In this document: positions 7,492 to 32,426 of the stretch, in pieces
How positions within the stretch are numbered: position 1 is the first letter of the stretch
Layout: each line of letters opens with the position of its first letter
IMG/VR virus record: IMGVR_UViG_3300028588_000015
Location: 70,721-134,720 of that record
From: a virus
DNA: 64,000 nt
Direction: 5' to 3' (one strand)
Made by a program: the position numbers and the translations under genes
Notes under the pieces: model-generated
Databases searched by the model: none
Told to the model about the DNA's origin: nothing
The model's input: only the letters and a program-made list of their open reading frames with translations

Positions 7492-10400
7492 ATGAGCGAT
7501 CCTGTATACAGCACACCAATGGGTGATCCGACTCGTTTGCGTGAGTTGGTGAAGGTGGTAGAAAGTGGCGCCGCCCCGACCTGGGTGTATACGCCTGACA
7601 GTGGTGCGGATGCACCGGCCTACGGTCAGGGTGGACTTTTCCCAAGTTTTATCAAGGCCGGCACCGATGGCTCCATCGCGGTGCGCTTCACCGGTTTTCA
7701 AAACGCCACCATTGCGTTCATTTCCGACAAGACCAAGCGTTGGGATGGTGCGACGCCGTGGCGGATCGATACGTACCAAGCGGGGCACGCCTATAAGCCT
7801 GTACTGTACGGTAACTATCTGACCGATGGCCCAAATGTCAATGCGGAAGGCGGCGACATCGTACAAATGCGCCGCACCGGCACGACGGTTTATGCAGAAG
7901 TGTCGAAAGACAATGGCGCCACCTGGATCAACATTTACACTTGGCCGAATGTTGATCCGGACATGGATCTGTACGGTGAAGTGGGCGTGTTCTATTGGAT
8001 GAGCCGCGCTGAGGGGGTATGGGCCAAAGGCTTGGATTCCCAAGTCAATCCAGTCGCGCCCACGCCCCCTGTGCTTGCTTCGGCCATTGCCTCAAACGTC
8101 GCCGGCATGGGACGGGTGGTGCTCAATTTCAATGAACCCATCGACAAGAGCAAGATTCCGGACAAGTCGGCGTTCAGTGTATCAGGGCATACCGTCGCTG
8201 CGGCTACGAATATGGCAAGCTTGGCAAACGCTATCGCTCTCGACGTCACGGGTTTGATTGCCTTGGGTGAGGTTGTCACGGTCACCTACGTTGCGCCAGC
8301 CACCAACAGCATTATCGACCTCGACGGCACGCCCGGTAACAGCTTTGGCCCAGTGGTGGCAATCAATAACGTACCGCGCCCGCTTGGTGTTCGCCGACGC
8401 CTCGGTTATGTGCCGCCCGGTATCGCAGAAGGCGGGGTGGCGCCAAATTGGACCTATGCCAATACCGATGGCAATTACACGACCTGGGCCAACACTGCCC
8501 AGGCACTGAATCGCATGCCAGCAGGTCGCGATGGATCGTTCGAACTTGTCATTGGCAACTACGCCAATGGTTCGTTCATTGGCCTCACGGCAAGTTCCCA
8601 AGTCAACACGCTCCCTGAATATTCTCTGAATATTTACCAGTTCGGCTACCCCTACACACTGTCTGCCGGTAGCGATGCGGCAGCAGTTGCTGTTTTGGCG
8701 GCGCCCGGCGATATCTGTCGTATGCGTCGTTTGGGTAACCGCATTTATGCAGAAGTGTCGAAAGACAATGGCGACAGTTACACGGTGGTTGGCACCTGGT
8801 CGAACACACCCCAAGTTGATCTGTACGGCGAAGTTTCGTTGGCCTTCAATACGAACATCAGTGCAGTTTATAGCACTGGTTTCGTGGCAGCGACGGCTTA
8901 CGACGTGTTTGTCGATAAAGCCCGAGACTTGGATCTGCGCGGAAAAAGCTGGACAGCAGAACAAGTCAGTTATCTGAACACTTCGGTTGCCACCTTGGCG
9001 CCGGATGGCAGTGGCGGGTTGTACAAGCAATCCAATGCAGCCACCCTCGGTCTGGCGTGGACGCAGCGTAACGAGGACGCTGGTTCGGCGGTTTTCTTCA
9101 CGCACGATGGCGGTAGTTACGCTGCCATTCCGCAATTGGTGGTGGCCAGCAACTTGCTGGAAACTTATACCGACGGTATCCGATGCTCGTTCACTGACGG
9201 TGGATTCTTGCTGGAAGAAATCACCAATGGTGCCGTAGGCGCCATGGTTTCCAATACGCTCGCCTTGGTGGCGGGCGAAAAGTATTGTTTGGAAATTGGC
9301 CAAGCCGATACGGTCAGTGACAAAGATTTTGTTTTGCGTATCAGCACCGTGGTCGCAGGTGAGCGCGGTTTGCTGGTGGCATACGCCTTGCTCAATGCGC
9401 GAAACGCTCATCCGGGTAAGAACGCAGGGCTGCTGTCGAGCGCGGTCGATAGCGCTTTCGATACCGTCACGCGGATCGAAACGCTGGCGCAGACAATCCC
9501 CGTGCGGATGGTCCCATCAAAGCTGCTCATCGAGGCGGCCTCGAATCAAGTGACGCAAGGATTTTCGCAACGTTTGACGGTACGGACTGACCAGTCTCTG
9601 GCGGCTTTTGAAAGCGTGGAAGTCAATATCACCGACAACGCTGGTGGCCAATTTGATGTGGCCAACTTCACGCTCTCGGGTACCAACCAGCTCCAGCAGG
9701 TTAACTGGCGGCCGAGCAACGTGATCGGTGCCCGTACGCTCACGGCCCAGCAAGTCACCGGTCTTGACGTGGACGACGGTTCGCTGCATTTCGAAGTGAC
9801 CGTACCGATTCCGGCCAGCGCACTTGTTTACACCGGCGAAAAGGAAGTCGAACTAGGAAAGACGCTGAAGTTTGTGCTGTCTACCAACCAGCCACTGCTG
9901 GTGGGCGACACCGAAGCCTACACCGTGTCCCTCGTCGGTACTGGCAGTGTGGCACCAATGTCCGGTACCCTGAACAATGGGGACCTCAGTCAGGAACTGG
10001 AATTCACACCGCAAACGGTGGGTGTGACGAAGATTAAGTTCACCCCCATGGGTTCGCCTGTCCTTCCGGCCTTGGAAGTGCAAGTGACGGTGAAGCCCCG
10101 TTCACCGACGTTTGTCAAGGGTATCAACGTCTACGAAGTCGGCATTGGTCACCAGTTTGCAACTGCCAAACAGGCGTCCGCCTACATCGCCGACAAGAAG
10201 TTGGTCGATACCCAGGCAAAAGTCTATTTTGAGTACTACGGTGATCATTATTTTGATACCGACTTTGTTGCGGGTAACACCAGCCAAGAGTACAACATCA
10301 CTCACCGGCCGGCTGCGGGTGAAGGTTACCTGGACAAAGCTACTTCAGGTTTGTTCCATTATCCGGATGCTGGTACTGAGTTAACCTTCCCGGGTTCGTA

Positions 10401-22148: not shown

Positions 22149-23771
22149 ATGAATACCATGCACCAGTACTACGACCTCATCCGGAAAGTCATCACCGAAG
22201 GTAACATCCGTACCGACCGCACCAACACCGGTACCATTTCGTTATTCGGCCCGCAAATCGAATTCAACCTCGCCGACGGCTTCCCGCTCGACCCCAGCCG
22301 CCAAGTGTTCCTGCGCGGCGATCTGGAAGAACTCTTCTGGATGCTGCGTGGCTCGACTAACAATAACGAACTGACGGCCAAGAACGTCAACATCTGGACC
22401 CAGTGGGCAATCCGCCAAGAGCACGTAGAATACACCCAAGCCGAGCGTCTTGCCATGCTTCGCGAGAAGTTCATGCAAGACACCGGCGATGGCGCCGCTG
22501 GCCAGACGGTTTATTTGTCAACGATGGCCGAAGCGATCGATATCGACAAGATGCTCGACGGTCACGGTATTCCGAAGGAAAAATACGCCAAGGAGCAGTT
22601 GGCCATGCTCTTCCAGAAGCTAGTGGAAAAGAACGGTTCCAAGGAAATTGCTCTATCCCACTACGACGCGATGTTCAAAGGCGGTGTGAGCCAAGAGCAG
22701 TTCAACACCATCATGAAGAACTACGGCATCCCCGGCGCCCCGAAGATCGGCGCCCTCGGTCCCATTTATGGCGAGCAGTGGTGTAAGTGGCCTGACCCAG
22801 AGAAAGACGAGACCAAGTTCTTTTCAGTACCAGAGCGCGTCCAGATGGCCGAAGATTATCTGGCCAGCGGCGCGGCTGAAAAGTTCACGCAGGCAGACTT
22901 GGACAGCGTCAAGGACCAGTACCAACAATACCTCGATGAGAAAAGTAATGGCGCCACTGGCTCGACGATGGAAGAACTGCTGCACGATGACATCGATACT
23001 TGGGGTATCCCCAACAAGGTCACGCGACGTACCACCCACAACCAAATCGCCAAGCTGATCGAGGACCTAAAGAAGCGACCCAATTCGCGGCGTCACATTG
23101 TCTCGACCTGGAACGTACCCTACCTGCCGGACGAATCGCTGTCGCCCCAGCAGAACATCATGCGTGGTAAAATGGCACTGGCGCCATGTCACACCCTCTT
23201 CCAGTATTACGTGGAAGGACGCGCGTCCATGGAAATGTGTAAGGAACTTACGACAGAGCAACTGGACGAGTACATGCAATATTGCAGAGAAAACGAGCTA
23301 GAAGTTCATGCTTTCCAATCGGATCAGCGCGGGTTTATCGACGATCCGAAGTACTGGGAAGTAATTTTCAATTTCGACAAGAAGAAGTTGGTCAATGACT
23401 GGTTCAAAGAACGTGGCATCAAAACCCAGAAGCTGTCCTGCAAGTTGTACCAGCGTTCGTGCGATCTCCTCGTCGGTGGCGCCTTTAACATTGCCGCCTA
23501 TGCTGCACAAACCATGATGGTCGCCCAGTGCGTCGACATGGTCCCGGGCCGGTTCATCCATACATTCGGCGACGTCCACATCTACAAGGACCACATGTTG
23601 CCTAACTCGGATGGCGACTCTGTGTTCACGCAGTTGGAACGTGAAGTGCGCGCGATGCCGGTCCTCTTGATTAACCCGGAAGTGAAAGACATCTTCGCCT
23701 TCAAGTACGAAGACTTCAAGTTGACCGATTATAACCCCCACAAAAAGATCAACTACAAAGTCGCGGTTTAA
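22149..23771 (+). CDS. thyA: Thymidylate synthase with three large insertions
   Basis: DRTNTGT, ELFWMLRG, LGPIYG.QW, SRRHIV, MALAPCH, YQRSCD, FNIAAY, GDVHIY. Confidence 0.95.
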   Translation: MNTMHQYYDLIRKVITEGNIRTDRTNTGTISLFGPQIEFNLADGFPLDPSRQVFLRGDLEELFWMLRGSTNNNELTAKNVNIWTQWAIRQEHVEYTQAERLAMLREKFMQDTGDGAAGQTVYLSTMAEAIDIDKMLDGHGIPKEKYAKEQLAMLFQKLVEKNGSKEIALSHYDAMFKGGVSQEQFNTIMKNYGIPGAPKIGALGPIYGEQWCKWPDPEKDETKFFSVPERVQMAEDYLASGAAEKFTQADLDSVKDQYQQYLDEKSNGATGSTMEELLHDDIDTWGIPNKVTRRTTHNQIAKLIEDLKKRPNSRRHIVSTWNVPYLPDESLSPQQNIMRGKMALAPCHTLFQYYVEGRASMEMCKELTTEQLDEYMQYCRENELEVHAFQSDQRGFIDDPKYWEVIFNFDKKKLVNDWFKERGIKTQKLSCKLYQRSCDLLVGGAFNIAAYAAQTMMVAQCVDMVPGRFIHTFGDVHIYKDHMLPNSDGDSVFTQLEREVRAMPVLLINPEVKDIFAFKYEDFKLTDYNPHKKINYKVAV

Positions 23772-29601: not shown

Positions 29602-30360
29602 ATGGAAAAGAAGAAGGTTCCTTTGCTGTTGTTCTCGGGCGGTCTCGATTCGTCCTACATGTTGCAAACGTATCTGGAAAAGGGTGACGTTGAAACACTT
29701 TACGTCAAAGGAGCACAGCATCCAGACAAAGTCACGCTCGAATTGCGGGCTCGCACGCGCATCATTGCCGAACTGGAAAAGAAGACCGGCAATAGGGTTC
29801 TCAAGGACCGTGTCGTTAATCTCCACGATTTGTTCGAAGGCGACATGCCTGACCGTGCTTTTGTTCAACCCATCACCTGGATCACCGGTGCGCTCCAAGT
29901 ATCGAACGGAGAGAAGCATGCTCACCTTGCTATTGGCTATGTCAGTGGCGACCAAGTTTCTTCCGAAATTCCGTTCATACACGCTGCATGGGAAAACATA
30001 CAGCACTTCACGAAGCAAAATACTATCCCGGTTGAGTTTCCATTGAAGGTCACCACCAAGCTGATGATCCTCGATAACATCTGGCCTGAAGTGGTTCAGC
30101 ACGTCTGGGTCTGTGAAATGCCCGAGCGGCGCGGTGACCGTATCGACGGCGTGGGTAGTAAAAAAAGACCAAAATCATGCGAATGGTGCGCAGCATGTCT
30201 TACACAGGCTGGCACCTTGGCGATGTGGAAACAGAAACACGGTGAGCCATACAGCCATAGATTCATCGCGCGGCTGCGTTGCAATAAGTTAAGAGAAGAA
30301 GATGCGTTAAAACGAGTACTACTGAAAGAAACTATCCCTCCAAGAGAAAATTCAAGATGA
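29602..30360 (+). CDS. QueC-like PP-loop ATPase
   Basis: LLFSGGLDSS; FPL....K; W.CE.P...CEWCAAC zinc site. Confidence 0.8.
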   Translation: MEKKKVPLLLFSGGLDSSYMLQTYLEKGDVETLYVKGAQHPDKVTLELRARTRIIAELEKKTGNRVLKDRVVNLHDLFEGDMPDRAFVQPITWITGALQVSNGEKHAHLAIGYVSGDQVSSEIPFIHAAWENIQHFTKQNTIPVEFPLKVTTKLMILDNIWPEVVQHVWVCEMPERRGDRIDGVGSKKRPKSCEWCAACLTQAGTLAMWKQKHGEPYSHRFIARLRCNKLREEDALKRVLLKETIPPRENSR

Positions 30361-30683
30361 AAATCAAACGTTTCGATATCCCTATCAAAATCTTCGTCAC
30401 CCGTTTCTTCACGCCCTATCCCAAGAAAACAGTCGAACGTGAGCGCTCGACCGTCGAGACCCGAGAAGGTCGAATACGGGCACCGAAAGACATCGAAGAC
30501 GAACTGATCAAGCTCCTCGCCGACGCCAAGGCATCCAATCTCGTGATTACGGTGACCCAACAGTCCGTGTTCCCGCCGGCGATGGGCCGCATCCAAGATC
30601 ACATCGTGATTCGCGAGTCATATGAAGTTGCGCGCATGATCATGGAGCGCAAAGACTTCAACCAAGACAAGGAACAAGAGTGA
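30357..30683 (+). CDS. Hypothetical protein
   Basis: ATGA overlap; strong codon bias. Confidence 0.6.
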   Translation: MKIKRFDIPIKIFVTRFFTPYPKKTVERERSTVETREGRIRAPKDIEDELIKLLADAKASNLVITVTQQSVFPPAMGRIQDHIVIRESYEVARMIMERKDFNQDKEQE

Positions 30684-30684
30684 T

Positions 30685-31098
30685 ATGGACGATTCCTTGA
30701 TTGTGCGTGAAATCTTCGCCCACCGCGTCGACGATCACGTGTCGCCGCTCAAGATCGAGTGCCTTGGGGTTGCGGCACAGGGCGGCGCACAGAACTATTA
30801 CCGGATCACCGGTTTTAATTACGCAGCCGACGGCAAAACGGTCAATGCCCTGCCAATCTCTTTTCAGATTGGCAACCCCGAGGTGTTGGGCGTCAACGGT
30901 GTGACCATGGAAGCACTGCTGGCGGTGGTCATTGACCGCCTGTCAGGATTGCAAAAAGGGATGTACCCGTGTAGCGAAAACAATATGGCTTTGGGGCATC
31001 TCGAAGCCAGCATGACTTACCTGCACGCACGGTCGCGCCGTATTCAACAGACGCTGTTTGAAATTGAAGCCATGCCTGAACTGCCAGAAAAGAATTGA
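30685..31098 (+). CDS. tad1: Tad1-like immune-signal sponge protein
   Basis: GGA...Y.I, ISFQ.G......NGVT.E.LL.V..DRL..LQ.G.Y.C.EN..AL.HLE.....L..R matches the Tad1 pattern. Confidence 0.8.
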   Translation: MDDSLIVREIFAHRVDDHVSPLKIECLGVAAQGGAQNYYRITGFNYAADGKTVNALPISFQIGNPEVLGVNGVTMEALLAVVIDRLSGLQKGMYPCSENNMALGHLEASMTYLHARSRRIQQTLFEIEAMPELPEKN

Positions 31099-31204
31099 TG
31101 TAAATTATTACATTAATTTCCCTATGGTATGTTTAGTACTGGGTAACTCATTTTCCCCAACCTGAATAAAGGGTAACCGATGAACAAACTCGAATAACCA
31201 AAAA

Positions 31205-31808
31205 CTATCTGATGATCCGTGAAAACCGGAGCCACGTGCTGAGCACTGTGCGAGGTGTCACCGTATCCAGCGGTGTGGTACGTGGTTGGGATAATACCCC
31301 ATGAAACCCGAGGGCTCCAGAAGTTGTTCTGGGATTGCTTCTGCCGGTTGACAGACCCTTCACGGAGTCTAACAACTGAGTGTGTGTGCCTCTGGTCATA
31401 GAACGTGACGTTTTTGGGTTACGGTACGTCGCATTTTCCTTTCCTAGGAAAAGATACCATGCAAGCTTCCAACTTGTGAAAACCGTACGGCCAAACTTTC
31501 TGGGTGGAACCAGTCATGTTTGGCAAGTTGTCCACATTCCCGTGGCGGCCCTCCCTTGGGCAGCGGACAGCGGGAAAGAGCATATTACCCCGGCCCGTGT
31601 GGAGTGTGGGTGGTTGGTGCCGCGGCCTGCGGCCAGTGCTCTGTGTGCAGCCTGTAACACCTTTCTCGTGTTGGCTGAAAACAGCCGGCCTCTTTGGAAC
31701 CCGCCAAAGATGATTCGCTCGATATTGGGATACCGACGGGATGTCGGGGTCGGGGGAATGCGTGTGAGGGTGTTACGGGATGTACAGTGTTTTCATGGAT
31801 CGTGATAG
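31205..31808 (+). ncRNA. Candidate large (~600 nt) structured ncRNA, class not recognised
   Basis: CTATC/ATGATCCGTGAAAAC (31205-31226) pairs with GTTTTCATGGATCGT/GATAG (31789-31808); more than 10 internal helices; terminator downstream. Confidence 0.7.
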
Positions 31809-31825
31809 GGATGTCCGATCTTGAC

Positions 31826-31850
31826 AGTCACCCTTCGGGGTGACTTTTTT
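31826..31850 (+). terminator. Intrinsic terminator (UUCG loop)
   Basis: AGTCACCC-TTCG-GGGTGACT-TTTTT. Confidence 0.85.
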
Positions 31851-31874
31851 CCGACTACTAAAGAAAACGATACC

Positions 31875-32426
31875 ATGAAACATTTACGATTGGCATTGGA
31901 GCATAACTCACCATTAGCTAACATGGAAGAGGTGAGGGCGGAACCAGAAGGAAATATGTGGTTTCGACACACCTCGCCGTATGCGCTGGCTGAATTGAAA
32001 CCGTTGAGTTACGATGAATTGGAAAAGGTTCGGCCCGATTACGATGTTGAGGCACGTAAAAGGACAGAAAAGAAATACCATCGCTTGGCACACACGAATC
32101 CCGACACGAGTTTTCTTTACGCCACGATGGTGGGATTTCATCAGATGGAAGATGTGCTGTCTTACCCAGGTTACACATATTTCTTCAAACTGGAACTATG
32201 GCAATTGCCCGAATGTATCTTTGATGTCGTCGATCAAAAGAAGTGGATGGAGCCGACCAAAGGTATTGCTGGATACACGCTGGCACGAGACATTTGGACG
32301 CGGCATCGGCGAGAATTTAAACCGTACGAGGAAGAAGGTCTCGGCACTATTGAACCACGTATCGAGCTTATCATTCCGTATTCGGTAAAACCCAAACTCT
32401 ATGTCCCGCAAGAAGAAGACCGTTAG
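31875..32426 (+). CDS. Hypothetical protein, possible processed head protein
   Basis: N-terminal KHLRLALE resembles the phiKZ-type head protease site (S/A/G-x-E). Confidence 0.55.
   Translation: MKHLRLALEHNSPLANMEEVRAEPEGNMWFRHTSPYALAELKPLSYDELEKVRPDYDVEARKRTEKKYHRLAHTNPDTSFLYATMVGFHQMEDVLSYPGYTYFFKLELWQLPECIFDVVDQKKWMEPTKGIAGYTLARDIWTRHRREFKPYEEEGLGTIEPRIELIIPYSVKPKLYVPQEEDR

Follow-up and report, generated by a model that had tools for sequence, protein, structure and literature searches.

A large RNA family with a hammerhead-derived 5' domain, predicted to self-cleave, in phiKZ-like jumbo phages

What does a jumbo phage keep in a gap between its protein genes? The window, that is, the whole stretch of 64,000 nucleotides that we analyzed, covers positions 70,721 to 134,720 of a 225,547-bp record (G000, the genome under study). 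The gap that the first-pass annotation had described, from the sequence alone, is present at 31099 to 31874. It was read there as a structured RNA of unrecognized class beside a Tad1-like gene. Our comparison of this locus with its homologs points to a new large phage RNA family and, in its 5' part, a new hammerhead architecture whose cleavage is predicted.

Virion and helicase PHROGs among the window genes indicate a phage of the phiKZ-like jumbo type. The best cultured relative is Burkholderia phage FLC9 (helicase identity, 48.5%), and three uncultured close relatives, G001 to G003, have helicases 76 to 78% identical to that of G000. The genes around the RNA are the following.

29602 to 30360, plus strand: QueC-like gene (PHROG 1550, E = 1.6e-26), found 5' of the RNA in each of the four phages
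30357 to 30683, plus strand: 108-aa clade-specific gene, the constant upstream neighbor of the RNA
30685 to 31098, plus strand: Tad1-like or phiKZ gp184-like gene (PDB gp184, E = 2.7e-11; Tad1, E = 1.4e-6)
31875 to 31901: start of the gene after the terminator, compared with L005 2231 to 2608 and L006 608 to 982 (minus strand)

Homologues of the QueC-like ORF were found in L005, L006, and L007, and the L005 copy matches Pfam QueC. The 108-aa gene adjoins the RNA directly in G002 and G003, with one gene between them in G000 and G001; the large protein database holds five such proteins, the fifth homologue being P0003, and a fold search with the product gave no match. The Tad1-like gene occurs in two of the four phages (G000 and one of its three relatives) and is absent from G002, whose record is complete. 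Hence, it is an optional and not a fixed partner of the RNA, and a functional link between the two is unsupported. The Tad1-like domain of FLC9 makes up the C-terminal portion of a longer protein, gp131 (338 aa; L033 5377 to 6393). The first gene 3' of the terminator varies: a gene of unknown function in G000, an HAD-like gene in G002 and G003, and the ribonucleotide reductase small chain in G001. The first nine residues of three post-terminator proteins are similar (MKHLRLALE in G000, MDYLRIALL in G002, and MNHLRMALE in G003). Elsewhere in the window, the thymidylate synthase (22149 to 23771) has 540 aa against the 335 positions of its PHROG profile, pointing to a large insertion or a fused domain. 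A rough dicodon filter marks other long stretches of G000 as lacking coding-like ORFs (1 to 1611, 8826 to 10222, 125602 to 127047, and 136625 to 137765); these are possibly further RNAs or atypical genes.

Is the gap an RNA gene? The whole RNA, predicted at about 720 nt, lies in a gene-free stretch, and the 15 helices named in the first-pass annotation are all present and fully complementary, G-U pairs allowed. Folding stability was proposed there as a check, and the z-score of −4.26 (20 shuffles, terminator included; −3.86 without it) does lie below the shuffles, but it is weak evidence because 2 of 16 control windows of 624 nt had z ≤ −3.9 (range, +0.29 to −4.96). The homologs gave −3.15, −2.52, and −1.67. 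With a background that reaches about −5, we rejected the z-score as proof. We regard homology with compensatory change as the decisive evidence for an RNA. All three close relatives carry a collinear copy, preceded by the same genes and closed by a conserved terminator, at a mean column identity of ~68%. Across these four sequences, from which the structures themselves were drawn (one by RNAalifold), 50 of the 122 modeled base pairs show a compensatory change, counted with MAFFT register errors left in and with the middle region (~31537 to 31611) set aside. By segment alignment, the counts are 8 of 25 pairs, 10 of 26 (the stem III segment, 31303 to 31397), and 13 of 30 and 19 of 41 (both in the 3' RNA), each reached by 0 to 1 of 500 shuffles. 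Paired cells amount to 92 to 95%, versus 28 to 49% with the partners slid. Conservation, covariation, and the lack of a conserved ORF thus uphold the proposal of a stand-alone large structured noncoding RNA without a protein gene, and we are close to certain that the locus holds a real, selected large RNA.

Rfam gave no match at the gathering level in the window and sub-threshold noise only, both locally and in the three homologs, and ARAGORN found 0 tRNA and 0 tmRNA genes in the window or genome. Lying between intact genes and ending in its own terminator, the RNA matches no tmRNA, RNase P RNA, or group I or II intron, of which the first-pass annotation had seen no hallmarks either. "Unrecognized class" is right in that Rfam has no match for the RNA but not for the 5' domain, which holds a complete hammerhead core. 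Likewise, the helix that had been drawn to close the RNA from end to end (31212 to 31226 with 31789 to 31803, extended by CTATC/GATAG) is present in G000 (duplex, −26.2 kcal/mol; p = 0.006 against tail shuffles) but not conserved (p = 0.91 in G002, 0.48 in G003, and 0.19 in G001). We rejected it as a family feature; the comparative structure instead pairs 31205-31208 with 31398-31401.

These four pairs form stem I of a type I hammerhead layout in which every core base is present, a feature absent from the first-pass annotation. Core bases (A9, G12, U16.1, C17, etc.) follow the hammerhead numbering. The parts of the RNA, 5' to 3', are as follows.

31099 to 31134, plus strand: AT-rich stretch with TATG, a candidate late promoter (putative start, G31131)
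31180 to 31197, plus strand: five-codon leader ORF (MNKLE), preceded by purine-rich, SD-like sequence
31205 to 31215, plus strand: 5' strand of stem I (31205-31208) and core CUGAUGA (31209-31215)
31216 to 31230, plus strand: hairpin Pa, the equivalent of stem II, with a UGAAA-type loop
31231 to 31302, plus strand: inserted helices Pb (31231-31286) and Pc (31287-31301), which separate stem II from G12
31303 to 31397, plus strand: core GAAA (31303-31306), branched stem III, U16.1 (31396), and C17 (31397)
31398 to 31401, plus strand: 3' strand of stem I, with cleavage predicted at 31397/31398 from hammerhead geometry
31398 to 31851, plus strand: predicted 3' product, an ornate RNA of 454 nt (442, 442, and 445 nt in the relatives)
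31466 to 31509, plus strand: candidate kissing loops UUCCA (31467-31471) and UGGAA (31505-31509)
31527 to 31786, plus strand: two-state element, from constrained folds
31789 to 31808, plus strand: tail able to base-pair with the hammerhead core, in G000 only
31826 to 31851, plus strand: intrinsic terminator, conserved in all four phages

In a type I hammerhead, three helices surround a conserved core (PMC6155905). A strict descriptor of this arrangement, with limits chosen after the motif had been seen, required four Watson-Crick stem I pairs, CUGANGA, at most 150 nt, GAAA, two further pairs in stem III, and UH. Of the 118 CUGANGA sites on the two strands of the 225-kb genome, it matched a single one, at 31209/31303/31396. 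It also matched once in each of the three homologs and in 0 to 2 of 2000 shuffles of each sequence. All 12 core positions (CUGAUGA, GAAA, and U16.1) are invariant in the four phages, against 81 of 204 positions over the whole domain. In every phage CUGANGA follows directly 3' of the first strand of stem I, and GAAA leads into stem III with an A15.1-U16.1 pair. The NUH triplet between stems III and I reads GUC, CUU, CUU, and GUA, with C, U, U, and A, never G, at position 17; pair 1.1-2.1 is U-A or C-G, and pair 15.2-16.2 is C-G or G-C. These free positions vary as a working hammerhead allows.

Stem I pairs in 19 of 20 cells, with compensatory changes in 2 of 5 pairs, and Pa has three invariant CG/GC pairs. 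Pa is the same hairpin as stem II of the type III hammerheads scored by Rfam on contigs L034 and L062, and its loop, conserved here, matches the Rfam consensus; a search near stem I showed no receptor for a tertiary contact of this loop. CUGAUGA was also considered as part of a kink-turn, a reading dropped because no GA faces it on the opposite strand. None of the Rfam hammerhead models scored above its threshold. With no single stem II joining A9 to G12, the domain is, on its sequence, best described as a hammerhead-derived variant and not an ordinary member, and we consider this derivation highly probable.

The junction is unusual. After Pa come Pb, Pc, one pyrimidine, and then GAAA, so that three tandem helices replace the single stem II leading to G12, and the span from A9 to G12 reaches 87 (G000), 111 (G002), 128 (G003), and 120 nt (G001). 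The G10.1-C11.1 pair is absent; the opposed bases are U.U, U.C, U.C, and C.C. Stem III is a branched domain of ~90 nt with an invariant UGGGA loop (31330) and an invariant bulged G, and the whole hammerhead domain measures ~195 to 240 nt. Pb ends in a sub-hairpin (4 of 5 pairs compensatory) whose AYCCA loop at 31265-31269 is complementary to the invariant UGGG of stem III, with 16 of 16 cells paired and one one-sided change. We infer a four-way junction in which Pa would be stacked under the core, beneath the A9-G12 pair as in ordinary hammerheads, and Pb on Pc, while the AYCCA-UGGG contact would tie the insertion to stem III and brace the fold.

Can such a core cut? Nearest-neighbor models, which ignore tertiary contacts, place the hammerhead state of the isolated domain within 1.2 to 2.3 kcal/mol of the minimum free energy in the three sequences computed. 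Stem I has only 4 to 5 bp, a length that may suit product release. Just after its synthesis, with the leader included, its probability is 0.56 in G002, 0.22 in G003, and 0.91 in G001, and only 0.01 in the short transcript of G000; in the full-length RNAs of all four phages it is 0.00 to 0.02. The value peaks directly after synthesis of the stem in three of the four. The G000 tail, which is the 3' strand of the rejected closing helix, would sequester the core, an effect significant in this phage only. Together, these stem I probabilities and the G000 tail argue that any cleavage would be cotranscriptional or conditional. The absent G10.1-C11.1 pair and the indirect link between stem II and G12 could silence the core. 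A U10.1-U11.1 mismatch occurs in natural hammerheads and leaves more activity than other mismatches, and for phage hammerheads transcript processing has been proposed and cleavage during in vitro transcription shown (PMC3088659). We consider it probable that the 5' domain is catalytically active, constitutively or conditionally.

The RNA has candidate signals for its own transcription. The TATG sites noted in the first pass are found at 31123-31126 and 31128-31131, and TATGTT with its upstream T/A tract is kept in all four phages. The late promoter consensus of phiKZ is −3 TATG +1 (PMC7618050), and the candidate fits this short consensus, which is weak evidence alone, yet it is conserved in four of four. 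The leader ORF is kept in length and place in three phages with differing codons (MNKLE, MKQNY, and MNYTR), ends 7 to 9 nt before stem I, and is deleted in G001. At the other end, the UUCG terminator was confirmed (31826-31845 plus a U tract). In each of the four phages, the last bases of the U tract are CCG (TTTTTTCCG; window 31846-31854).

The 3' RNA is the steadier part of the transcript: its length is 454, 442, 442, and 445 nt (range, 442 to 454), versus 267, 292, 308, and 266 nt (range, 266 to 308) in the same order for the 5' piece. Rfam has no match for it. The UUCCA and UGGAA loops sit in a covarying multihelix domain and could pair with each other at 5 of 5 positions; these pairs are invariant in all four phages and hence outside covariation testing, which cannot support the kissing. 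Farther on, the invariant UGUGUGCAGCC (31642-31652) can pair either with the upstream GUUGU.C (31527-31536) or with a downstream strand near 31777-31786. The two constrained folds differ by 1.4 (G000), 6.2 (G002), 2.1 (G003), and 1.5 (G001) kcal/mol, and we infer from these models that the element may switch. A long covarying helix encloses the loop GAACCCG, which is invariant, and a conserved bulge, UGGGAU. The 3' domain resembles the P4-P6 junction of group I introns, but this reading was dropped, as no conserved P3, P7, or guanosine-site elements were seen in the alignments.

As far as seen in sequence searches, the family appears confined to one clade. With blastn, isolate phages gave two short chance matches and plasmids none. 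Three RNA patterns drew 12, 6, and 34 stretches from IMG/VR, of which the real homologs were G001 to G003 only, and neighbor-protein searches in IMG/VR added no RNA homologs. In GTDB, none passed among 120 of the ~300 chance stretches. In 50 of 78 more distant records (helicase 37 to 50% identical), blastn, a pattern, and two covariance models reached best E values of 0.026 to 0.049; the three pattern hits inspected, of six, all lay in other contexts. The metagenomes yielded 32 stretches and no full homolog, several being ordinary hammerheads. Two metagenome contigs, L034 (1671 to 2569) and L062 (1978 to 3896), carry four and seven type III hammerheads, 230 to 500 bases apart and apparently between short ORFs.

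Built on the observed conservation, covariation, hammerhead core geometry, terminator, and absence of a conserved ORF, our preferred model is a self-cutting hammerhead front domain that releases a ~450-nt RNA with a scaffold role, and we give it as a whole a probability of about 0.5. Transcription would start at the TATG site or read through from the upstream genes. The RNA would cut itself at 31397/31398 during transcription, in a short window once stem I has been made, leaving a ~450-nt 3' RNA with an exact 5'-OH end. We hypothesize that the released RNA would serve as a structural scaffold held by its kissing loops; by analogy, a scaffold role for the 3' RNA is likely.

The alternative that survives best, although we think it unlikely, is that the hammerhead-derived fold cuts rarely or never and is kept for structure or protein binding within an intact ~720-nt RNA. 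The broken stem II junction, a stem I predicted to be unformed in all four full-length RNAs, the blocked core of G000, and an inserted domain elaborate far beyond what cleavage requires would all fit this. It does not sit well, however, with a core invariant at 12 of 12 positions and with changes at position 17 and in the stem pairs that all obey hammerhead rules, or with the U10.1-U11.1 mismatch reported in natural hammerheads, which supports more activity than other mismatches (PMC3088659).

Somewhat less likely still is conditional cleavage, in which Pb and Pc, the branched stem III, and the two-state element would form an allosteric switch thrown by a ligand, a protein, a ribosome on the leader ORF, or a second copy of the RNA. 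Several invariant features are dispensable for catalysis (the bulged G of stem III and the UGGGA and AYCCA loops), alternative pairings lie within 1.4 to 6.2 kcal/mol in all four phages, and in three the five-codon ORF stops just before stem I; but no ligand or partner was identified, the anti-core tail is significant in one phage of four, and evolutionary drift may explain the alternative pairings. An equally tentative extension is an allosteric hammerhead in a multiway junction, switched by a signal or a partner RNA, that would mature a 450-nt RNA of a new class, whose kissing loops would let it assemble as a cage or ring during infection.

Could the RNA instead be a domesticated relic of a mobile RNA (a retrozyme, a viroid-like circle, or an intron), its hammerhead mainly trimming the upstream operon transcript? 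Hammerheads are frequent in mobile elements (PMC6155905), and the stretch that separates the RNA from the genes before it showed no strong terminator. Against this, the RNA is single copy and occupies the same locus in all four phages, with its own promoter-like site and terminator and strong covariation in the 3' domain. Nor does it have the tandem or both-strand ribozymes, repeats, or copies of retrozymes and viroid-like RNAs: the descriptor found one match and no second or minus-strand hammerhead, and there are no long repeats. Reverse transcriptase (PF00078) was found in none of the four phages (control positive in 3 of 14), and RtcB and Rnl2-type and T4 Rnl1-type ligases in none of the four records (the T4-type search ran without a positive control), three of which are 82 to 85% complete; hence, circularization or retro-mobility has no support, and we judge this origin improbable. 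As a further candidate RNA-repair partner, a small HAD-like gene occurs close to the RNA in three phages, not in G000, and has only a weak PNKP-phosphatase score (E = 0.076).

More improbable again is a role in titrating a host RNA-binding protein (CsrA/RsmA, for example) as a decoy, or in regulation by base pairing. GGA does occur within the conserved loop motifs UGGGA, UGGAA, and UGGGAU, and rsmX scores weakly (16.8 bits versus a gathering score of 56), but this match is mostly terminator, and the hammerhead core would be left unexplained. For two of the GGA loops there is an invariant loop of complementary sequence, and the third neighbors the invariant GAACCCG loop, which suggests RNA-RNA contacts at these sites. 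Finally, a protein encoded by ORF 31380-31805, with an incidental fold, has a negligible chance: the frame is open for 141 codons, but it is not conserved in the homologs (longest plus-strand stop-free runs of 92, 98, and 79 codons), which appear already to contradict the protein reading, its dicodon score is −0.34 versus −0.01 to 0.38 in neighboring genes, Pfam and PHROG searches found no match, and the covariation across the region argues against it.

How does the RNA compare with known systems? With the hammerheads (Rfam clan CL00010; RF00008, Hammerhead_3), the 5' domain shares the placement of CUGAUGA, GAAA, and UH against stems I and III, an open stem I, and the stem II hairpin of the Rfam consensus. 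It differs by two helices between stem II and G12, no G10.1-C11.1 pair, a branched stem III, and a total length of ~195 to 240 nt versus ~55, and the Rfam models miss it. Published variants also depart from the compact fold: hammerheads with insertions near C3, a U10.1-U11.1 mismatch, or a stem II that is weak (Perreault 2011, PMC3088659), a pseudoknot hammerhead (PMC12192606), and the discontinuous Clec2 hammerhead (PMC6155905), with core substitutions and a very long helix I among their departures. In the parts of these papers compared, helices between stem II and G12 occur only in the RNA described here, and a precedent could sit in the supplementary alignments of the variants. Titles and abstract openings of CC-licensed PubMed Central and bioRxiv papers name no inserted-helix hammerhead and no ribozyme-linked large RNA in phiKZ-like phages; in the passages compared, PMC10914365, PMC8244752, and PMC12908238 go no further than short ncRNA candidates of phiKZ or a reference to a group I intron.

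Among large phage RNAs, ROOL and GOLLD are of similar scale and form cages through kissing loops (PMC12286853). Like them, the RNA is phage encoded, several hundred bases long, and rich in helices, with candidate kissing loops and no obvious protein partner. Unlike them, it carries a ribozyme core, has no Rfam match (the ROOL, GOLLD, and OLE covariance models found nothing in the window or the three homologs), and lies in a genome with 0 tRNA genes, whereas ROOL and GOLLD locate near tRNA islands. The likeness is, by this comparison, one of style and not of membership. Theta ribozymes, self-cleaving phage RNAs with an HDV-like fold beside tRNAs (PMC10879173), are arguably the nearest functional precedent: they are likewise placed to excise a neighboring functional RNA, here a 450-nt RNA with a hammerhead at its 5' end. 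In our model the RNA works like a hammerhead-matured large RNA, although it falls outside the strict hammerhead, ROOL, GOLLD, and OLE models.

If it cleaves, the domain would be a hammerhead architecture that Rfam misses, with whole helices set into the link between stem II and G12, beside the active site. Similar inserted-junction hammerheads may hide in other genomes, and a cleaving version would give the design of switchable ribozymes a template from nature. What prokaryotic hammerheads do has been called an open question (PMC6155905); cleavage here would give a phage hammerhead a specific job, the maturation of a large noncoding RNA. For the phiKZ-like phages, the finding adds a new family of large structured RNA.
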